This document shows, piece by piece, positions 17,003 to 63,204 of a DNA stretch of 64,000 bases. Origin of the DNA: Promethearchaeia archaeon (GTDB lineage Archaea; Asgardarchaeota; Lokiarchaeia; Sigyniarchaeales; SOKP01); contig JAHQWG010000033.1 of the NCBI GenBank assembly GCA_029856045.1, forward strand, positions 32,001 through 96,000. The letters run 5' to 3'. Numbering within the stretch: the stretch's first letter is position 1; each line of letters begins with the position of its first letter. Both the position numbers and the translations under genes were made by a program. The notes under the pieces are model-generated. The model did no database searches. It saw nothing but the letters and a program-made list of their open reading frames with translations, and had not been told where the DNA came from.

Positions 17003-18343
17003 ATGTCAGCACCTATAGAAAAATTGTTAAGAGATGCTAAAGTTGATTTAGTGGTTGCACGGGTTGAAAAAGATCCATCGGTTATAAATGATATAATCGG
17101 ATATTTAAAAAGTGAGATTAGATCAATTCGATTTAATGCTGTATTAGCACTAGGTAAAGTTGGTCAAAAAGCCACCGTGGGAGTATCCAATCTAGCGGAA
17201 TGTTTAGCAGATGACGATTGGAGTATATGTCGTGAAGTTGCGCGATCATTAGGAAAAATAGGAGCTCCGGCAAAAGATACCATCCCCGAGTTATGTAGGT
17301 ATATTAATAATAAAGAAATGTCGATTCGAAAAGAAGTTGTGATTTCTCTTGGGAAAATCGGTTTCGCAAGTCAAGAATCAATATCTAATTTAATTAATAG
17401 TCTAAATGATGAAAATGAAGAAATTCAAACAGAAGCCGCTAAATCACTTGGAATGATAGGTCCTGATGCCTATAATGCTATTCCCCACCTAATGAATAGC
17501 CTTAAAGATATAGGTTGGACTGTTAGAAATGCATCTGCTCAAGCAATAAGTAGAATTGGCGAAGGTTCTACAAGAGCAATTCCATCTCTTATAACGGCAC
17601 TTGAAGATCAAGATTGGAGAGTGCGATATCGAGTTATTGATACCCTTGCAGTGATGGGGCAAGAATCAGTTCCAGCCATTTTGGAAGTTATAAATTCTAA
17701 AAACCCTATCGTTAGAAAGGGAGCAATTGAGGCTTTAGGAGAATTAAAACTTGCTAATCCTGAAATCCTTGAAAAATTATCATTTTTACTGCATGACAAG
17801 GTTGAATATGTTCATGGAAAAGCTGCTGATGCACTTCGTAGTATAGGTAAAGAAGCAATTCCTGCTTTAATCAAAGAACTTAAAGTAGCAAATAAGGAAA
17901 TGAGAATTCTTATTATTTCTGCAATTGGGGGAATAGGTATTGATGCAACAGCTGCAATTCCAAGTTTGATTGAATCATTAAAGGATTCAAAAAGTTCAGT
18001 TCGGGTAGAAGCTTCAAGAGCATTAGGAAGAATAGGTCTAAATTCAGAAGATGCTATAATTGCTCTACAAGAAGCTCTAAATGATTCAAAAAGTATAGTA
18101 AAACGAGAAGCGGCACTTTCTCTGGGGAATATTGGTCTATTTGCTGCTAAAACAGTTCCTGCTTTAATTGAGTCATTAAAAGATAAGAAACCTGACGTTA
18201 GATGGAGAGTTTCTGAAGCCTTAGGAAAAATAGGAATTGATAATCCGAAAGTTATCGCAGCTCTAAAAAGTTTAGAACATGATAAATACGACTATGTGAG
18301 TGAATCTGCTTTAAATGCGCTTGATAATATCACAGAAAAATAA
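17003..18343 (+). CDS. HEAT-repeat (PBS-lyase-like) alpha-solenoid protein
   Basis: About 13 tandem ~31-34 aa repeats of the type AIP.LI..L.D....VR..AA.ALG.IG. An AGGAGGT SD overlaps the livF stop codon. Confidence 0.92.
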   Translation: MSAPIEKLLRDAKVDLVVARVEKDPSVINDIIGYLKSEIRSIRFNAVLALGKVGQKATVGVSNLAECLADDDWSICREVARSLGKIGAPAKDTIPELCRYINNKEMSIRKEVVISLGKIGFASQESISNLINSLNDENEEIQTEAAKSLGMIGPDAYNAIPHLMNSLKDIGWTVRNASAQAISRIGEGSTRAIPSLITALEDQDWRVRYRVIDTLAVMGQESVPAILEVINSKNPIVRKGAIEALGELKLANPEILEKLSFLLHDKVEYVHGKAADALRSIGKEAIPALIKELKVANKEMRILIISAIGGIGIDATAAIPSLIESLKDSKSSVRVEASRALGRIGLNSEDAIIALQEALNDSKSIVKREAALSLGNIGLFAAKTVPALIESLKDKKPDVRWRVSEALGKIGIDNPKVIAALKSLEHDKYDYVSESALNALDNITEK

Positions 18344-54425: not shown

Positions 54426-54782
54426 TTAATAAAATTGAGTTCGCAACTTAGAAATCAAAAGACCCTTATCCAATACTTGAATACCATTGTTTTTTCCAAA
54501 TTTTTCTGAAAATTCACTAGATTTACTACAAATCATAACTCCCCCCTCAATATCATCAATATCATTGCAAGCTTTATTTAATTGACGAATCTGAGTTATT
54601 GAGATTTCTCGTTTCCAATCTCGAATAAAGACTCCAAATTTTCCGTTGTCTAATATTAATGCGTCAAATTTCCAAACTTTTCCTGATTTACCTCGAAATG
54701 TTTTTTCTTCATCTATATATCGATAATTCGCAGAAAATAAAATTTTTGCTAATTCTCGCAGGTTTTTATCTTTTAAATCCAA
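54426..54782 (-). CDS. Small Mrr-like PD-(D/E)xK-fold protein, probably catalytically degenerate
   Basis: GKSGKVWKFDA, DWKREISITQIRQL, GGVMIC...FS...GIQVLD. Confidence 0.7.
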   Translation of the reverse strand: MDLKDKNLRELAKILFSANYRYIDEEKTFRGKSGKVWKFDALILDNGKFGVFIRDWKREISITQIRQLNKACNDIDDIEGGVMICSKSSEFSEKFGKNNGIQVLDKGLLISKLRTQFY

Positions 54783-56322: not shown

Positions 56323-58485
56323 ATGAGTGATACAGAATTTAAAAAAAATTTATTAATTGTAATTGATATAACCGAAAAAGAAAATACTATTCTCAACGAT
56401 TTAGGAAATATTAAAGAAATAAGTGGAAACGGAAAATTAATTATAAAAAATCCGTCTGATAAAAGTCGATTGTGGAACATTACATGTGATCTAAAAGAAA
56501 CGGTAAAAACTTCATTTTCTGCACGTGAAATAAAAATAGATACTCTAGACCCGTTAAAGGATTTTTCTTCCAATTATACAATTTCTAACATAAAAGAACC
56601 TCTTTTAACAGTTACTGAAAAATTCGATACTTTATCAGATTTTTCAGATCGAGAAAATAACACGTTTTTATTTGCTCAAGATACTAAATGTCAGTTAAAA
56701 CTCCATTTAACAAATCAAATAAGTGGAGATATTATCAATATTAAACTTATTAAAGAGATTCCTCCTATACTTAAAGATATTGAGCTCGTTCCACCTAATA
56801 ATGGAACAGCTTCAATGAAAGAAGAAGAAGGTTCGAATAAAATATTTTGGGAATTAAACTCTTTAGGTGTTGGTCAATCGGCTGAATTAGTAGTAAATTG
56901 TATTGGATTAGCAAATTCCGTAGAAATGCAACCACTTGGAGAAATAAGTGCTACATATCTAGTAAACAATAGAATATTAACAATGATTGATCCAGATATA
57001 GTTGCAATAACAGATTCGATGAGTGGAGTAACAAGGGATGAAGGTAGCAAACCAGGGGTATGGGATTGTAATGTTGAATTCATTAATGAATCTGAATTTC
57101 AAGTAAAGTTAAATGATGTAAGAGTAGAACATAATATTATTACTGGGAAAGAAATTGTAGTATCCCAAGCACCCGGAAAGATTTTAAACAGAGACCAAGC
57201 ATGGGATTATGATTTCATTGTTGAATCTAAAGAAGTCCCTCAATTAGAACCAACTTTCGAATTCACTACTTTATTTACAGTGATAAAACGAGTTGAGGGA
57301 ACTATATATAAAGAACCATTATATTATCCCGTACTTCGGGCAGAAGTTTCAAAAGATATTAAACCAAATGAGGTAGGAGCTTATGCAAATACTGATATGG
57401 AAATCTTTAACACTATTTTTAATAAAGGATCAGCTCCAATCGATAAATTACTGATTACAGATGAAATAAACGAAGATTTTGAACCTCCAGACCTGAATAA
57501 AATTAAACTCTTTGCAAAAACTGGTGGGGAATTAAAAGGAATTTTCGGTAATGAATATGTTAAGGTATTTCAAATTACCCCGGATAATAAGGACTTGACA
57601 AAATCTCATAGAATAGAAATTGAACTATTTAATATGGCAAATGACTTATCATCAGATAGTACTTTAGAAATTTCTTATCCAATAATTGCTCGAAATCCAA
57701 AACCTGATAAATCGTATCAAATTCCAATTACTGTTCAGTTAAATACGAAAATTGAAGGAAAACCCTATATTATTGGCCCAAGTGAAACACCGGAAATAAG
57801 AATTAAATATATTGCTAGAAAATTTAAGACTCTTAAAAGTATTAAGCCAGGTAGTGCAGCGGGGGAGTTTATTGTAAGTATTCGACTCCAAAATCAAGGA
57901 AATGTTGAATTAGAAAATATTCTATTTAAGGATAAAATTCCAGTCAATTTTGAATTGATAAGCTTTTCTCCAATGGAATTGAAATATGAGTTAAATAAGA
58001 TTGAAAATGAATCTGAATTAGTTGTAAGAATTATAGAGTTAAAAGCTGATACTGTATTGAAGATCGAATATCAATGTTCTGGTATTGGTGAATACCCACG
58101 ACATGAACCAGTAGTTATTGTTGAAGGAAGGAAAGACGTCATTTCTCAGCCTGAAGAAAATGTAGAACCAACTGTAAGTAGAACACCCGAATCATCAATA
58201 AGTTCCTTTGCAGAAAACATATCATTCTCAATTAAATCACAAATTATTGATGAGATTATTAATCTTGAGAAAAAAATTACCCCTGGATTAAAATCAGTGG
58301 ATGTTGCCAATATGATTGAATATATGAGAGATCTTATTGCTAACATTGCGAGAGTTGGTCCCTTTATTCATGAAATTGGACAAATTGCAAAAGAGTTTAA
58401 AGATCTAGGAGAAAAAACCGTTGTTGGTGAATCTCACGATAAAATTACCAAAAAAATCAAAGAATGGAAAGCTAAATTTTCATAA
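56323..58485 (+). CDS. Cytoplasmic multi-beta-sandwich protein: mu-homology (adaptin mu/delta-COP)-like domain + Ig-like domains + C-terminal Vps28-like helical bundle
   Basis: No signal peptide or TM. IDITEKENTILNDLGNIKEISGNGKLII and IPP...G......KIFWELNSL..GQSAEL...EISATY resemble MHD strands. K.I.P...V.I...N.G..L.NI...D.IP are DUF11-like Ig repeats. The last ~80 aa are helical. The CDS is certain; the domain calls are inference. Confidence 0.6.
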   Translation: MSDTEFKKNLLIVIDITEKENTILNDLGNIKEISGNGKLIIKNPSDKSRLWNITCDLKETVKTSFSAREIKIDTLDPLKDFSSNYTISNIKEPLLTVTEKFDTLSDFSDRENNTFLFAQDTKCQLKLHLTNQISGDIINIKLIKEIPPILKDIELVPPNNGTASMKEEEGSNKIFWELNSLGVGQSAELVVNCIGLANSVEMQPLGEISATYLVNNRILTMIDPDIVAITDSMSGVTRDEGSKPGVWDCNVEFINESEFQVKLNDVRVEHNIITGKEIVVSQAPGKILNRDQAWDYDFIVESKEVPQLEPTFEFTTLFTVIKRVEGTIYKEPLYYPVLRAEVSKDIKPNEVGAYANTDMEIFNTIFNKGSAPIDKLLITDEINEDFEPPDLNKIKLFAKTGGELKGIFGNEYVKVFQITPDNKDLTKSHRIEIELFNMANDLSSDSTLEISYPIIARNPKPDKSYQIPITVQLNTKIEGKPYIIGPSETPEIRIKYIARKFKTLKSIKPGSAAGEFIVSIRLQNQGNVELENILFKDKIPVNFELISFSPMELKYELNKIENESELVVRIIELKADTVLKIEYQCSGIGEYPRHEPVVIVEGRKDVISQPEENVEPTVSRTPESSISSFAENISFSIKSQIIDEIINLEKKITPGLKSVDVANMIEYMRDLIANIARVGPFIHEIGQIAKEFKDLGEKTVVGESHDKITKKIKEWKAKFS

Positions 58486-58560: not shown

Positions 58561-59694
58561 TTACTCATCATCTGCTTTTGGAATTTTGGGAAGTATCCTT
58601 CCAGAAACTTTAATTGTTTTAGGTTTAGTTTGATTATCTTTAGTTGTTCCTAAAGTGTCTTTCTTTGCACTCGATGTCTTAGATATGACCTTTTTAGCTG
58701 TTTTTTTTGTAGGTGTTTTTTTACTTATCGTTTTAGTGGATATTTTTTTAGCTGGCGTTCTAGAGGTTGTTTTTTTTACCGGAGTTCTAGTTGATGTTTT
58801 ATTATTTCTTATTGGAGTCTTTTTATCTAATGTTAATACTTCAATCCCTTTTATTATAGCACGTTCCTCATCAATATAAACCTTTATCTTATTATTTTCT
58901 AGGTCAATTATTCCACTAGGAAATTTTTTAATTCTTTCCCATTCTATATCCTCAACTTCCTCTCCAAGAACAGTAGTTATCTTAGAGACCGCTCCATATA
59001 AATAGTTCCCCATTATGATATTTTGCCGTTTATATCCAGCTGGAATTTCATTTTTTAAAATTTCATTCAAAATTCTTTTAACTTGATCTTGAGAAAAAGA
59101 TGATTTTTTAGTAGTGTATCCAGGACTTATACTTGATGGAGTTATTGGAATAGGTTTAGAAGTTACTTTTTCATTTACTTGAGGTTTAAAAACAGGAGAT
59201 ACTAGAGTAGATTCCATAGCATTCCCATTAAAACTACCTAAAGCTGGGGAATAATAATCTGTACTTTCTACTTTCTTCGAAACCGGATCTGCATCCAGAA
59301 TTATCCCTTGAATCTTACCATCTCTTTCTATATTTCTAATATATCTCATATCTGGTAATCTTTCAGTTACTTCCATCGATTCTAGACCAAACACATTCAA
59401 AAATTCGACCAATTCATCGCCTTGATCGATTGATTTTATTATACATCGATGAAATCCTGCTGATTTTATTAATTCATTTTGCAGTTCTTGGGCAACTCGT
59501 GAAGATATGAATCTCTTCCGAACTGGAGACTTAGAACCTTTCCAAATAAAAATTCTCCTTAGATCTTCCCTAACTATCACAAATACCTGATTAGGATCTA
59601 AAATTGATCCTAATTCTTCAGAAGATATATTCAGTTCATTTCTATTTCCATCATCTAATAATTCAAAAGCCATAAATTCCTTGTATTCAGTCAT
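58561..59694 (-). CDS. Gelsolin-domain protein (Asgard 1DGelX-like) with a basic K/T-rich tail
   Basis: LDPNQVFVI....RIFIWKGSKS....RF...A...IDQGDE..EFL is the gelsolin-repeat signature. A second domain starts IPAGYKRQNII.GN.LYG. The tail is low-complexity. Confidence 0.82.
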   Translation of the reverse strand: MTEYKEFMAFELLDDGNRNELNISSEELGSILDPNQVFVIVREDLRRIFIWKGSKSPVRKRFISSRVAQELQNELIKSAGFHRCIIKSIDQGDELVEFLNVFGLESMEVTERLPDMRYIRNIERDGKIQGIILDADPVSKKVESTDYYSPALGSFNGNAMESTLVSPVFKPQVNEKVTSKPIPITPSSISPGYTTKKSSFSQDQVKRILNEILKNEIPAGYKRQNIIMGNYLYGAVSKITTVLGEEVEDIEWERIKKFPSGIIDLENNKIKVYIDEERAIIKGIEVLTLDKKTPIRNNKTSTRTPVKKTTSRTPAKKISTKTISKKTPTKKTAKKVISKTSSAKKDTLGTTKDNQTKPKTIKVSGRILPKIPKADDE

Positions 59695-60043: not shown

Positions 60044-60736
60044 TTGAATAAAATGGGAGTAAATTTTTGCCCAAGTTGTGGTGATCCTTTACAACCTGGT
60101 CAGAAGTTCTGTGAAAAATGCGGTGCTAAAATTGATGACTCTGCACCAGTACCTTCTCAAACTAAAAGTGCTACCAGCCCCGTTCGAAGTGGTGGAATCT
60201 TTGATATTAACAGAAACTACTATGTCTTGAAAGAGAAATACTGGGATTGGGGGTCTGGCGATATTCTTGATGAAAAGGGGCAACCCATCGGGAGAATGCA
60301 TCGAAAAATAATTTCACTTAGAAGGAAAGTTGAGCTTATGGAATTGGATGGTACTATCCAAGCAACAATTCATGCTAAGATTGTTAGTGCAAGAGGATCT
60401 CAAGATTTGAAAGATCCAGAGGGAAATATGATCGCTAGAATCAAAAAATCAATAACTAGTGTTTTTCGCCCTAAATTTTACTTAGAATCTCCTGATGGAG
60501 ATAAATGGTATGAAGCTCAAGGTAAATTCATGGGTTGGTCCTACAAAGTCACAAATTTTAAAACTGGTGAGTTAGTTGCAGAAATCGAGAAAGCTGATCG
60601 GTGGAGGGATGTTTTTTTGGGTGGTATGTTCGATTTTAAGGACACATACGCCTTACGGATTCATGATAATAAAACTGATAGGCGTATTTTAGTGGGGTTT
60701 GTTCTTTCAATTGATAATGTCTTGCATGATAAATAA
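60044..60736 (+). CDS. Zinc-ribbon + LURP-one/scramblase (Tubby-C-like) protein (likely ATG at 60053)
   Basis: FCPSCG...KFCEKCG, then YVLKEK..WG..DILDEKGQPIG, I.DPEGNMIARIKK, GELVAEIEK...DTYALRI and a terminal hydrophobic helix GFVLSID. Confidence 0.85.
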   Translation: MNKMGVNFCPSCGDPLQPGQKFCEKCGAKIDDSAPVPSQTKSATSPVRSGGIFDINRNYYVLKEKYWDWGSGDILDEKGQPIGRMHRKIISLRRKVELMELDGTIQATIHAKIVSARGSQDLKDPEGNMIARIKKSITSVFRPKFYLESPDGDKWYEAQGKFMGWSYKVTNFKTGELVAEIEKADRWRDVFLGGMFDFKDTYALRIHDNKTDRRILVGFVLSIDNVLHDK

Positions 60737-60919: not shown

Positions 60920-61708
60920 ATGAGTATGATTCGTCTCTTAAAATTAAAGGATTACATCACTCTTTCAGGGACAATTTGTGGGATTTTTGCTTTAATGATT
61001 GGAATTATAATTAAAGATTTAGCTTTGGGATTTTTTTTAATTATGATTTGTCAAGGGACAGATCTGTTAGATGGATATGTAGCAAGAAAATTAAATCAAA
61101 AAAATGAAATTGGAAAAGAAATAGATTCATTAAATGATTTATTTTGTTTTGGAGTTGTTCCTGCAATGTTAATTTTTATTAACTATTGTGATGATTTGCC
61201 CTTTGAATTAATTTTTTACATTCCAGCGATCATTATATTCATTTTGTGTGCTCTACTTAGATTAGCAAGATTTAATATTATGGATGCAAAGGGATATACA
61301 GGGATAGTAACTCCTTTATCCGGTTTAATGGTGACCTTCTTTTATTATATAGATTATTTTAGTATTCAAACTTTTGAAGAAAATAATTTTATTTCAATTT
61401 GGGTTCAATTACTATTTCCATTTTTATTAGGATTTTTGGGTTACTTAAATATTACTACTTTTATTATATATGGTGAAGAGATAAAGAAAAAGTCTGGTAA
61501 CTTAAAATATGTCTTTATTATCGGAGGCATTCTCACAATCGTAATCGGTATAATTGGACTAACTTTTCCAAAACAGTTGGCGGCTCTACCTTTACTTATT
61601 ATATTTATAGGATCTTTTGTATTAGGATGGTTTTATATTTTTATTGGTTTTAAAAATTATTTAAATTCAAGAAAGAATATTAAAAAGGAACTTAATTCAA
61701 CTAACTAA
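60920..61708 (+). CDS. pssA: CDP-alcohol phosphatidyltransferase, PssA-type (archaetidylserine synthase-like)
   Basis: DLLDGYVAR...GKEIDSLNDLFCFGVVPA and LRLARFN...GI.TP, characteristic of type II PS synthases. Confidence 0.8.
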   Translation: MSMIRLLKLKDYITLSGTICGIFALMIGIIIKDLALGFFLIMICQGTDLLDGYVARKLNQKNEIGKEIDSLNDLFCFGVVPAMLIFINYCDDLPFELIFYIPAIIIFILCALLRLARFNIMDAKGYTGIVTPLSGLMVTFFYYIDYFSIQTFEENNFISIWVQLLFPFLLGFLGYLNITTFIIYGEEIKKKSGNLKYVFIIGGILTIVIGIIGLTFPKQLAALPLLIIFIGSFVLGWFYIFIGFKNYLNSRKNIKKELNSTN

Positions 61709-63204
61709 TTTGCCAATCTTTCAATCCAATTTTTAATTCGATTTTTCAGTACTTTTTGTACATCCTCATCAAGCTTTCCTTTATTTTTGACATCTGTTAT
61801 CCAACGGCGTATATCATTTAGTATTACAGAGAAGCCTTTATTTTCAAGAATATAGTCATTTAATTCTTCTAAATGTTTTGCAATTACATTTCCATTTTTA
61901 CTATCTAATTCTTCTGAAATTGCGATAAATCGAGAGCCAATCTCGGTCAATTCTCCCTTTAGAACTCCACTTTTAAGAATTTCATCTTTAATGGATTTCA
62001 ATGGTGCTTTTTCTTTCTTTTCTTCAATGACCTCAATAATTTTTTCCTTTTCTTCAATAAATGTAGAAATTGTATCGATTTCTTTACCAATTGGCTCTTT
62101 CTTCTCAGCAATTTCTCCAGATGGAGGAGGAATTTTTATTTCTTCAGATTTTTTTATGATTTTAATTGGCATTTGTTTTGTTTTTTCAAACAGAAATTGA
62201 AATGCCTGATTATTTTGGTGAATTGGTGAAGACATAAAGTTAAAAACGTTTGCTAATAATTCAAATATTTTTTGGCTAAGAGATTCATCAAAAATGGAGA
62301 ATTTTTCTTCTTCTTTTTCTAAGACCATATTAAAAGTTTTCTCTTGATCACTAATAGTTTGTTCATACTCGTACATTAAATCAAATAAACTCATTCGAAT
62401 CTCATTTTCAATTTTCCCAACTTGAGAAGATATTTCATTAATGTTTTGCTGTAAGATCTCTGAATTTTTTTTAAACACATCAGGTAATTTTTCATTGAAA
62501 CTTTCTTTAATTTCATTAATTTTATTATCAATAATTTTATCTACTAATAATTTTATATCTTTCTGCTTTTTTTTAAGGTTAAATTCTTCGAGATTTTCCA
62601 TAATTTCTTGTTTCGTATTCTCGATTTGTTTTACAAAATTTTGAAAATGTAAATTGAAAACGTTCTCTACCATTTTATAAAATTTACTGGTATTGTTTAA
62701 TAATAGATTTAATTCAGGGATTAATGAAACTCCATCTTCATAATCCGCTTTTATTAAACTTAAATTTGCTACAATTGTGGTTTTTGCTTCTTGAAAATTC
62801 TTAATATAATTTTTTAAATTTAATAAAAATCCAGATTCTTCTTTAATCTCATTAAAAATTTTGGATATTTTATCAGGTAATTCATTGGCCATTTGATTTG
62901 ATTTAACATCAAATTTCTCATAATAATTTAAAAATGCACGATATGGGGGTATAGCGTAATAATAAGGTGTAATTTCCTCGGAAGATTCTGAGTTAGAAAT
63001 ACACAAACCTTTAGTTAAAAGCTCTTCGATTAAACTTTTATTTAATTCTTCATTTGTAGTTTCTGTAATTGATGAGATTTCTTCCATTGTTAAGGGAGGT
63101 CTCCCAATAATTTTTAAATAAAGGTCAAGACTATCATGTGAAAGATCCAATTCATTTAATAATTGAGTTAAAAAATCTTTATCATTATTATTTGCCATAA
63201 TCAA
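61705..63204 (-). CDS. TrmB-like winged helix + long coiled-coil + C-terminal Vps28-like helical bundle protein
   Basis: N-terminal L.L......LYL.......LT.EEIS.......L..L..KGL......YYAIPP, about 240 aa of heptad helices, an E/K/P linker and an 80-aa four-helix C-terminus. Confidence 0.65.
   Translation of the reverse strand: MIMANNNDKDFLTQLLNELDLSHDSLDLYLKIIGRPPLTMEEISSITETTNEELNKSLIEELLTKGLCISNSESSEEITPYYYAIPPYRAFLNYYEKFDVKSNQMANELPDKISKIFNEIKEESGFLLNLKNYIKNFQEAKTTIVANLSLIKADYEDGVSLIPELNLLLNNTSKFYKMVENVFNLHFQNFVKQIENTKQEIMENLEEFNLKKKQKDIKLLVDKIIDNKINEIKESFNEKLPDVFKKNSEILQQNINEISSQVGKIENEIRMSLFDLMYEYEQTISDQEKTFNMVLEKEEEKFSIFDESLSQKIFELLANVFNFMSSPIHQNNQAFQFLFEKTKQMPIKIIKKSEEIKIPPPSGEIAEKKEPIGKEIDTISTFIEEKEKIIEVIEEKKEKAPLKSIKDEILKSGVLKGELTEIGSRFIAISEELDSKNGNVIAKHLEELNDYILENKGFSVILNDIRRWITDVKNKGKLDEDVQKVLKNRIKNWIERLAN

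Follow-up and report, generated by a model that had tools for sequence, protein, structure and literature searches.

An Asgard archaeal protein that joins a mu-homology-like domain with an Ig-like insert to a C-terminal module probably related to Vps28

In the present study, we found that one gene of an Asgard (Promethearchaeota/Lokiarchaeia-type) archaeon encodes a protein in which a mu-homology domain (MHD) with an inserted Ig-like domain is followed by two further Ig-like domains, a linker, and a C-terminal helical module. Both parts, an MHD and a Vps28-like tail, are known from Asgard archaea, and the present combination arose in one lineage only. We consider it rather probable that the product is a soluble, cytoplasmic, modular adaptor-type protein that would act as an ESCRT-0/ESCRT-I-like accessory adaptor.

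The MHD is the cargo- and motif-binding fold of the AP mu subunits, delta-COP, and the muniscins. The adaptor-complex and ESCRT parts of Asgard archaea are central to the debate on the origin of eukaryotic membrane trafficking and, to our knowledge, almost none of them has been functionally tested. The Asgard mu-homology protein described here is no sparse oddity, as it belongs to a near-universal family of about 600 aa with a conserved Ig insert that is mostly missed by Pfam. Its tail represents a distinct and widespread Vps28-CTD-like C-terminal module, below Pfam detection, which caps several different proteins per genome.

The gene lies in a stretch of 64,000 nucleotides, here called the window, and its reading frame is open and encodes 720 aa (Table 1). 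The databases contain at least 168 full-length relatives with 42-94% identity, and the conservation of the family over its full length is far beyond chance. An earlier note on this DNA, made from the letters alone, had proposed a cytoplasmic polypeptide with an MHD-like region, an Ig insert, two DUF11-like domains, a linker, and a helical bundle, and this domain order was found. A hydrophobic segment of transmembrane grade and a signal-peptide-like N-terminus were looked for in the 720-aa protein, and neither was found; thus, its cytoplasmic location can fairly be assumed. A phmmer search of the PDB with the 720-aa sequence alone gave no match, and the sole PDB match of the full-length family profile was a spurious one to an adhesin (E 0.4). 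The structures used for the protein and for its tail are predictions. The DNA also occurs in metagenomes from marine sediment and salt marsh, in about 15 studies, and no RNA data set is among the sequencing runs listed for it.

Table 1. Features of the 720-aa protein gene and of a neighboring gene, in window positions
Feature	Position	Strand	Basis
Whole gene	56323..58485	+	720 aa plus stop codon; full-length homologs, 42-94% identity
MHD, first segment (aa ~8-225; subdomain A strands and subdomain B)	56344..56997	+	
Inserted Ig-like beta-sandwich (aa ~226-305), borders approximate	56998..57237	+	DSSP strands 233-301
MHD closing strands (aa ~306-345)	57238..57357	+	Strands 308-316 and 318-330; MHD alignments reach model residues 331-334
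Ig-like domain, DUF11/CARDB class (aa 346-~495)	57358..57807	+	Atlas neighbors DUF11/CARDB; weak CARDB match in one homolog
DUF11 Ig-like domain (aa ~496-600)	57808..58122	+	PF01345, TIGR01451
Predicted disordered P/S/E/T-rich linker (aa 601-621)	58123..58185	+	pLDDT <50 at tail-fragment residues 2-21; poorly conserved
C-terminal helical module (aa 622-720), remotely Vps28-CTD-like	58186..58482	+	Short helix and four-helix bundle
Neighboring 499-aa gene	61705..63204	-	Weak TrmB-like wHTH match, then long helical region, coiled coil by eye
Module in the 499-aa neighbor (last ~95 aa)	61708-61992	-	hhalign with broad module profile

The N-terminal all-beta region (aa ~8-345) was modeled with AF2 at a pLDDT of 88.6 and a pTM of 0.78. 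In a Foldseek search with this model, almost all of the top ~50 matches were MHDs of mu1-4 and delta-COP (E 1e-10 to 1e-9), and the MHD matches spanned model residues 7-332 with about 225 aligned positions. The predicted structure has the bipartite all-beta MHD fold, with subdomains A and B and with C-terminal strands that close onto the first. The domain begins at about residue 8, with no longin domain or other sequence before it.

At the sequence level, the Pfam model of the MHD, PF00928 (Adap_comp_sub), did not match the 720-aa protein itself at E<=10 (gathering score 31.6 bits) or anything across its own genome at E<=1. Within the family, PF00928 matched 7 of the 38 close members and 13 of the 23 diverse ones; the best score, in one homolog, was 36.7 bits against the cut-off of 31.6 (E 3.7e-9), with aa 51-216 aligned to profile positions 70-227. 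When 151 Asgard genomes were searched, PF00928 reached its cut-off in 9 and E<=1e-3 in 40, and all of its matches fell within ORFs of the MHD-Ig family or its paralogues. The reverse search, with the MHD-only profile of the family against 177,635 PDB sequences, gave 22 matches at E<=10, of which 20 were mu chains of AP-3 (best E 0.005) or AP-2 (E 0.12-0.28) and one was the AP-1 gamma ear. This match, by profile comparison, is weak but specific. As the sequence searches in both directions agree with the predicted fold, the MHD-like reading of the N-terminal region is supported. Conserved residues in the first strands (D15, E20, K42, N43, and S48-R49-L50-W51-N52) and in the closing strands (R323 and G326) are candidates for a YxxPhi- or Trp-motif-binding pocket.

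About 100 residues of the model (~226-305) lie outside the aligned MHD positions, which fits a beta-sandwich inserted before the closing strands, as the earlier note had supposed. The insert is the best-conserved part of the whole protein, and T230, S232, S234, G235, P244, G245, W247, C249, N255, S257, F259, and Q260 are invariant in it. The two DUF11-like Ig domains were also present, at aa 346-600. In the ESM Atlas, both the structure and the feature neighbors of the first of them (aa 346-~495) are DUF11/CARDB proteins. For the second, PF01345 gave 19.2 bits at aa 513-556 of the 720-aa protein, below its cut-off of 24.6, and TIGR01451 gave 24.6 bits against a cut-off of 24; PF01345 matched all 38 homologs, with a best E of 5e-13. 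The P/S/E linker that had been noticed is present at aa 601-621 and is predicted to be disordered.

DUF11/CARDB domains such as those of the Atlas neighbors are typical of surface proteins, and the protein might accordingly be read as an extracellular or S-layer-associated adhesin built of DUF11/CARDB Ig repeats, with the MHD likeness as an artefact of generic beta-sandwiches. The Pfam and PDB similarity to mu subunits is largely limited to subdomain B, an Ig-like sandwich, and the MHD profile weakly matches the protein's own DUF11 domain; both observations suit such an adhesin. However, the protein carries no signal peptide, transmembrane segment, or anchor, and its C-terminal module is shared with coiled-coil and wHTH proteins of cytoplasmic type. 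We therefore regard an adhesin as very improbable.

The model of the C-terminal module consists of five confidently predicted helices, the last four of which form a bundle; the earlier note had put the four-helix bundle at 58237-58485 (aa 639-720), in approximate agreement with the model. PF03997 did not match the 720-aa protein or any of the 38 homologs at E<=1, and in a genome-wide scan it matched only the Vps28 on C37 (46.5 bits) and a 789-aa protein on C36 (26.3 bits). Direct hhalign comparison of the tail with Asgard Vps28 gave probabilities of 0.7-1.2%, and successively broadened tail profiles gave 38% and then 76% with the Asgard Vps28-CTD. The family tail aligned with a family of ~200-aa module proteins at 97.9% (E 3.3e-13; reversed control 16%, E 1.6e-3). 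This ~200-aa family in turn aligned with Asgard Vps28-CTDs at 86.6-93.6%, including 89.0% with the canonical Asgard Vps28-CTD and 93.6% (E 2e-7) with a combined CTD profile. A merged module profile gave 88.0-93.4% (E down to 2e-7), over the full length and in register. Reversed-profile nulls in hhalign were 0.1-7.5%, with one at 10.8%, and the positive control was 94.3%; the 88-93% values are the end of a transitive chain through broadened profiles and are below the usual 95% level. The similarity is confined to the CTD, as the module profile gave 0.5% with the N-terminal part of Vps28 and the ~200-aa family aligned to Vps28 over the CTD only.

In the structural comparison, Foldseek found no match to the tail model at E<=0.001; the Vps28-CTD was the single best structural match, tied with generic bundles. 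The ESM Atlas gave no usable match to the tail by features, and by structure there was no VPS28-labelled cluster among the matches listed, the nearest of which were Asgard clusters with no common Pfam family, followed by HPt and M24 peptidase clusters. The Vps28 likeness proposed in the earlier note is thus made probable by the broadened profiles and not by PF03997 or by direct alignment. We conclude that the module is a probable, not a proven, divergent relative of the C-terminal four-helix bundle of Vps28.

The bundle could also be seen as a histidine-phosphotransfer (HPt)-like signaling domain, since all close family members share H683. However, this position is occupied by N, Y, R, W, or F across the wider module family, no Hpt Pfam match was obtained for the 720-aa protein or the 38 homologs, and the profile similarity favors the Vps28-CTD. 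An HPt function was rejected as extremely improbable.

At least four other proteins of the same genome end in this module as well, and it forms the very C-terminus of several architectures unrelated to one another (coiled-coil, wHTH, and ~200-aa proteins). A 190-aa protein on C25 is one carrier, and another is the 499-aa neighbor in the window, the tail of which matched the broad module profile in hhalign at 89.7% (E 1.9e-6). An E of 1.1e-18 for this tail (C32:93711-93980) is expected by construction, because the tail itself had been added to the module alignment. BLASTP (E 0.46) and the narrow family HMM gave no link between the tails of the 720-aa and 499-aa proteins; the broadened profile alone recovered it. 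The 789-aa Vps28_C protein on C36 was considered as a paralogue of the 720-aa protein and rejected, as BLASTP gave no meaningful similarity and its domains differ (DDRGK/UFL1/PCI).

The MHD-Ig core was detected in 123 of the 151 Asgard genomes searched and in 46 of 52 genera, usually without the tail. Orthologs outside the window's own family/order are ~585-630 aa long, with the second DUF11 domain as their last; thus, the fusion is a lineage-specific addition to a pan-Asgard core. This distribution does not support the suggestion that the fusion hints at an ancestral direct link from cargo to ESCRT: being confined to the window's family/order, the fusion is derived, and it is better described as an evolutionary experiment than as an ancestral state. 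As the core alone is widespread and older, it must have a function that does not depend on the tail.

Every taxonomic family with the module also has EAP30/Vps22, and none of the four EAP30-less families (8 genomes) has the module; however, EAP30 is nearly universal (136 of 151 genomes), so this phyletic fit is weak. In most lineages whose ESCRT set is complete, the core protein has no tail. In family f12, which has a full set, the module occurs in 0 of 19 genomes and Vps28 in 18. Conversely, family f7 has the module in 24 of 26 genomes, PF03997 Vps28 in none, and EAP30 in 25. In family f17, 4 of 5 genomes have the core, and Vps28, EAP30, and the module are missing. The combination in f7 of the module with no Vps28 was at one point taken as evidence against a link to ESCRT, and this argument was withdrawn because of the EAP30 in f7.

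The gene neighborhood varies. No ESCRT gene is adjacent to the MHD-Ig gene; C36 and C37 carry the core genes of ESCRT, and the proteins with the module are encoded on C32 and C25. The upstream neighbor is a CxxCxxCC gene in the window's family and an MBL-fold gene elsewhere. A 'trafficking locus' inferred from the neighborhood was rejected, as the gelsolin (GelX) neighbor is kept only within the genus and homologs of the LOR/scramblase-like, CDP-alcohol transferase, and 499-aa genes were absent from the ~1.5-kb flanks of the homolog loci. As for other adaptor subunits, PF01217 (sigma/small chain) had no match in the own genome or in the controls, and so had no positive control; for the large (beta/gamma) subunits, PF01602-like HEAT-repeat proteins are present in the genome, and that model also matches non-Asgard controls.

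In a rival reading, the domains are as described, and the protein is unrelated to ESCRT. Its MHD-Ig core would then be a general cytoplasmic scaffold for protein-protein contacts, and the bundle a lineage-specific handle for docking to or oligomerizing with another shared partner, or for self-association; its likeness to the Vps28-CTD would reflect very old ancestry or convergence of four-helix bundles. The tail-less core of most Asgard families, including f17, the lack of linkage to ESCRT genes, the lineage-dependent context, the distribution of the module in f12 and f7, and the tie with generic bundles all agree with it. On the other hand, the HH probabilities to genuine Vps28-CTDs with low reversed nulls, the rank of the Vps28-CTD as single best structural match, the restriction of the module to EAP30-bearing families, and the published Asgard precedent of Vps28_C fused to adaptin-like and Ig domains argue against it. 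We consider such a scaffold possible, although less likely.

In the preferred reading, as an accessory adaptor, the beta-sandwich part (the MHD with its conserved insert) would recognize the ligand, either short peptide motifs in other proteins or a membrane surface. The bundle on its tether may serve as a handle through which different heads (MHD-Ig, coiled coils, and wHTH) dock to a partner that they share. If the Vps28-CTD is taken as a guide, this partner would most likely be ESCRT-II (Vps22) or ESCRT-III, and with such a handle the 720-aa protein would resemble ESCRT-0 or ESCRT-I in its role. A bolder proposal, which we regard as decidedly speculative and improbable as a whole, is that in one Asgard order a motif-binding MHD, tethered to an ESCRT-II-docking handle of Vps28-CTD type, picks membrane-protein cargo and delivers it straight to the budding machinery of ESCRT, with no need of ubiquitin or ESCRT-I, while coiled-coil, wHTH, and ~200-aa proteins, as further heads on the same handle, compete with it for that ESCRT entry point. 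If true, coat-adaptor and ESCRT logic would be connected by a plug-in adaptor system, and we know of no system of this kind in eukaryotes.

Among known systems, the AP mu subunits and delta-COP have an N-terminal longin domain that anchors mu in the tetramer core. Unlike in delta-COP and the mu subunits of AP-1 to AP-4, the MHD here is itself N-terminal; lacking a longin domain, the 720-aa protein cannot enter a tetramer as mu subunits usually do, and so is no orthologue of that kind. Its design is nearer to that of the muniscins (FCHo/SGIP1/Syp1) and stonins, in which the MHD is a free module. In contrast to eukaryotic MHDs, it contains the ~80-aa Ig-like insert and is followed by DUF11 Ig domains.

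The N-terminal hairpin of Vps28, in the steadiness box, builds the ESCRT-I headpiece; no such hairpin is present in the 720-aa protein, so its incorporation into the headpiece is not expected. Compared with the Vps28 CTD (yeast 2J9U/2J9W; PF03997), the tail has no PF03997 match and a direct HH similarity of about 1%, and it has an extra short helix before the bundle. A Y2H interaction with Vps22 has been published for lokiarchaeotal ESCRT-I (Vps28 and/or Vps23; PMC9192718).

Asgard AP domains, including mu-C-terminal domains, have been described as sparse in their distribution and 'not fused to each other' (Eme 2023, Nature, PMC10307638), and our search found no other literature on a mu homology domain in Asgard archaea. 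The mu domains of that study almost certainly belong to the family described here, because all PF00928 matches in the 151 genomes lie in this family or its paralogues. Whereas the Pfam cut-off is reached in only a few genomes, the family is in fact found in most genomes and genera, and the full architecture, with the Ig insert, the DUF11 domains, and an optional Vps28-CTD-like tail, is described here.

Two reports (Liu et al. 2021, bioRxiv 10.1101/2020.10.19.343400; Makarova et al. 2024, bioRxiv 10.1101/2024.02.06.579148) describe Asgard multidomain proteins in which Vps28_C or the steadiness box is fused to adaptin-appendage, longin, Ig-like, PCI, or UFL1 domains. A role as ESCRT-0 analogues in contact with ESCRT-II has been suggested for such proteins, the contact being a direct one in the proposal of bioRxiv 10.1101/2024.02.06.579148. 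If the tail is accepted as Vps28-C-like, the 720-aa protein resembles them in joining an adaptin-related or Ig-like beta domain and a Vps28-C-type bundle in one Asgard-specific polypeptide. Compared with the proteins that the text of those reports describes, it differs in that its adaptin-related part is a mu-homology (cargo-binding) domain, not an appendage or ear, and in that its tail, which the Pfam VPS28 model does not detect, is part of a divergent module family of its own. The published type is found in the same genome as well, as the 789-aa DDRGK/UFL1/PCI...Vps28_C protein on C36.

The target gene is an intact open reading frame encoding a protein of 720 amino acid residues (P0001), as the earlier note had read it. 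On its own, P0001 matched only DUF11-type repeat models in Pfam and NCBIfam (PF01345, 19.2 bits; TIGR01451, 24.6 bits), and the PDB sequences gave no match. The family is well conserved, with at least 168 database proteins of about 700 residues showing 42-94% identity across the full length; all come from Asgard metagenome bins (labelled Promethearchaeota, Loki-, Thor-, Hod-, Hermod- or Odin-) and are annotated as 'hypothetical'. Since neither a transmembrane-grade hydrophobic stretch nor a signal-peptide-like N-terminus was found in P0001 or its homologs, the cytoplasmic location that had been claimed can reasonably be inferred. The same absence counts against an extracellular adhesin, a reading that is largely excluded and that we consider highly improbable.

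The N-terminal part had been taken for an adaptin mu-homology domain (MHD), and this assignment was supported. When homologs were scanned singly, the MHD family model PF00928 (Adap_comp_sub) matched 7 of 38 close family members, one of them, P0099, above the Pfam cut-off (36.7 versus 31.6 bits, E 3.7e-9), with its residues ~50-216 on profile positions 70-227 of 259. Of the 23 members of alignment A4, which is limited to the MHD and samples the family more widely (identity as low as 28%), 13 matched at E<=0.01. In the reverse search, the A4 profile gave 22 matches at E<=10 among 177,635 PDB sequences: 20 of these were mu chains from AP-3 or AP-2, the best at E 0.005, and another was the AP-1 gamma ear. 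The AlphaFold2 model of residues 1-350, built from family sequences as the sole input and no templates, was confident and all-beta (pLDDT 88.6, pTM 0.78), and nearly all of its Foldseek matches in the PDB were the MHDs of mu1-mu4 and delta-COP (E 1e-10 to 1e-9).

The Foldseek alignments span model residues ~6-334, yet cover only ~211-228 residues. These uncovered residues and the strand map of the model fit an extra beta-sandwich at about residues 226-305 that interrupts the domain ahead of its closing strands (~306-345), close to the Ig-like insertion proposed at ~230-315. The insert holds the densest run of family-invariant residues (T230, S232, S234, G235, P244, G245, W247, C249, N255, S257, F259, and Q260) and is probably functionally central. 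The two DUF11-like Ig domains and the P/S/E linker of the note were likewise found: residues 346-600 form two DUF11/CARDB-type Ig-like domains, according to Pfam/NCBIfam and to ESM-Atlas neighbours by features and by structure, and residues 601-620 are P/S/E/T-rich and predicted to be disordered.

The remaining tail (residues 622-720; hereafter, the module) is predicted to form a short helix and the expected four-helix bundle (pLDDT >90). Its proposed likeness to Vps28 did not hold in direct comparisons and emerged only with broadened profiles. PF03997 matched neither P0001 nor its 38 homologs at E<=1; in a genome-wide scan it found two proteins only, a canonical 214-aa Vps28 on contig C37 and a 789-aa DDRGK/UFL1/PCI protein ending in Vps28_C on contig C36. 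An HMM of the family tail detected nothing in the genome besides the target itself, Foldseek on the tail model gave nothing significant, and hhalign gave HH probabilities of 0.7% against 31 Asgard Vps28 proteins and 1.2% against the C36-type Vps28_C (positive control, C36-type Vps28_C versus Vps28: 92-94%).

A search of 1.84 billion representative proteins with the tail profile (A5) yielded just 31 matches at E<=0.001. Other architectures were among them: short proteins, MHD-Ig proteins of greater divergence, and coiled-coil proteins whose linkers are rich in Pro. The module invariably lay at their extreme C-terminus. A phylum-wide search revealed proteins of ~200 aa that form a widespread family; they consist of a helical N-terminus, a linker, and the module, and are encoded at loci distinct from canonical Vps28 genes. 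The P0001-family tail matched this family at 97.9% (E 3.3e-13; reversed control 16%, E 1.6e-3). The ~200-aa family in turn aligned with the whole C-terminal domain (CTD) of canonical Asgard Vps28 and nothing beyond it, scoring 86.6% between full lengths and 89.0% for module versus CTD; with a combined CTD profile as the target, the score was 93.6% (E 2e-7). A profile that merged the modules scored 88.0-93.4% against Vps28-CTDs. Reversed-profile nulls were 0.1-0.4% for the ~200-aa family and 0.7-7.5% for the merged profile, with one earlier null of 10.8%. Because the signal grew steadily with profile diversity, was collinear across 80-95 columns, and agreed with the top structural match, we consider the module likely to be a divergent Vps28-CTD-like bundle. 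The alternative that it is an HPt domain is largely excluded, being even less probable than the adhesin.

At least five proteins of this genome carry the module, with quite different N-terminal parts; an iterated profile found three of them on contig C25 (see the table).

Coordinates of the target gene, its neighbours, and related genes (window positions unless a contig is named)
Feature	Position	Strand	Remarks
118-aa gene, no known family	54426-54782	-	Adjoins target in 10-11 loci of the window's taxonomic family
CxxCxxCC gene, 282 aa	55238-56086	-	PF03692-like, E 0.001; divergent from target
Target gene	56323-58485	+	Intact ORF, 720 aa
377-aa gelsolin-type gene	58561-59694	-	Gelsolin-like N-terminal domain by eye; KKT-rich basic tail
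Zinc-ribbon + LOR/scramblase-fold protein	60044-60736	+	PF04525, E 4e-10
CDP-alcohol phosphatidyltransferase	60920-61708	+	PF01066, E 7e-16
499-aa neighbour gene	61705-63204	-	Module at C-terminus; broadened profile, hhalign 89.7%, E 1.9e-6
463-aa ORF	17087-18295 (C32:49087-50295)	+	Adaptin_N (PF01602) matches of HEAT/ARM type; summed score 53.9 bits
190-aa module carrier	C25:128280-128849, outside window	+	Profile; belongs to widespread Asgard ~200-aa family
471-aa module carrier	C25:81304-82716, outside window	-	Profile; module at end
338-aa module carrier	C25:66274-67287, outside window	-	Profile; module at end
789-aa protein	C36:77904-80270 (L033:205-2571), outside window	-	DDRGK, UFL1-like, PCI/wHTH, PF03997-positive Vps28_C

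The 499-aa protein also shows weak similarity to a TrmB-like wHTH (E 0.004) and contains a long helical region, coiled-coil by eye. Other module-bearing proteins of 635-720 residues occur on various contigs in the window's taxonomic family, in which the 789-aa protein is kept at ~790-800 residues.

The P0001 family was present in 123 of 151 genomes sampled phylum-wide (46 of 52 genera). Outside the window's taxonomic family, orthologs of ~585-630 residues align to residues ~7-600 and end directly after the second DUF11 domain; a genome of the same order has a 689-aa form. Because these orthologs stop there, the MHD-insert-Ig-Ig core is, by sequence comparison, an old, pan-Asgard unit and the putative Vps28-CTD-like tail a lineage-specific addition. 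This argues against the ancestral cargo-to-ESCRT link suggested in the earlier note. Paralogues in the window's own family (~720-780 aa) align only to residues ~127-593, with 24-31% identity. Of the 151 genomes, only 9 had a PF00928 match at the Pfam cut-off and 40 had one at E<=1e-3, every match lying in an ORF of the P0001 family or a paralogue, mostly across subdomain B; hence the sparse distribution reported by Eme et al. (2023; PMC10307638).

The module itself was found in 87 of the 151 genomes. EAP30/Vps22 occurs in every taxonomic family having the module, and the module is missing from the four families (8 genomes) that lack EAP30; family f12 has Vps28 and EAP30 and no module (0/19). 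This co-occurrence is compatible with an ESCRT-II connection and carries little weight, since almost all genomes have EAP30 and related genomes do not count as independent cases. In family f7 (module 24/26, EAP30 25/26, PF03997 Vps28 0/26), the module resides in proteins of ~300-425 aa, which might be divergent Vps28 counterparts. In family f17, the core protein is present in four of five genomes and Vps28, EAP30, and the module are all absent; thus, the function of the core is independent of ESCRT.

The genomic neighbourhood showed no ESCRT linkage, as C36 begins with a cluster of Snf7, Vps4, and Vps22, C37 carries Vps28, and the module carriers are on C25 and the window's contig, C32. Within the window's family, 16 loci keep the CxxCxxCC gene beside the target gene; the gelsolin-type gene, whose product had no match in a Pfam scan, is kept there within the genus only. 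In other lineages (loci L069-L079), 10 of 11 loci have a co-directional MBL-fold gene (PF13483, Lactamase_B_3; ~230-250 aa) immediately upstream of the gene for the MHD-Ig core; the closest homolog of that MBL-fold gene in this genome lies unlinked on contig C14. A conserved 'trafficking locus' is therefore unsupported. The only locus-level support is that two neighbouring genes, the target and the 499-aa gene, 3 kb apart on opposite strands, share the module. The LOR/scramblase-fold and phosphatidyltransferase genes lie between them, and no homologs of either were found within the ~1.5-kb flanks of the homolog loci. The PF01602 matches of the 463-aa ORF may be generic HEAT-repeat similarity, because the model also matches in non-Asgard control genomes.

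We suggest that the MHD with its conserved insert would be the ligand-recognition end and that the flexible linker would present the Vps28-CTD-like handle. The attachment of this handle to such different N-terminal parts argues for a common docking handle for one shared partner. The leading candidate would be ESCRT-II or ESCRT-III, given the probable Vps28-CTD homology, the ESCRT-I-Vps22 contacts detected by Y2H in Lokiarchaeota (PMC9192718), and the proposal of Makarova et al. (bioRxiv 10.1101/2024.02.06.579148) that Vps28_C fusions contact ESCRT-II. The overall picture, an adaptor-type MHD-Ig protein with a Vps28-CTD-like docking handle, is moderately likely; a specific cargo-to-ESCRT bridge is rather doubtful. 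The main rival, the same architecture with a handle serving a non-ESCRT partner or self-association, is clearly less probable than the overall picture.

Asgard mu C-terminal domains were already published by Eme et al., and Liu et al. (2021; bioRxiv 10.1101/2020.10.19.343400) and Makarova et al. (2024) describe fusions of Vps28_C or steadiness boxes with adaptin-appendage, longin, Ig-like, PCI, or UFL1 domains. What appears to be new here is that the P0001 family is near-universal in Asgard archaea although Pfam detects it poorly, that a separate, Pfam-invisible family of putative Vps28-CTD-like modules caps multiple architectures, and that the MHD-module fusion is limited to one lineage. The interest is moderate, mainly since the family offers clean, testable soluble domains.

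P0001 differs from strict mu-subunit orthologues, which have a longin domain before the MHD, in that nothing precedes its MHD; a free MHD is likewise found in the muniscins. The module is not a member of PF03997 and lacks the steadiness-box half of Vps28. The 789-aa protein belongs to the fusion type described by Liu et al. and Makarova et al.; the adaptin-related part of their fusions is an appendage, whereas that of the P0001 family is, as a further apparently new point, an entire MHD bearing a conserved insert.
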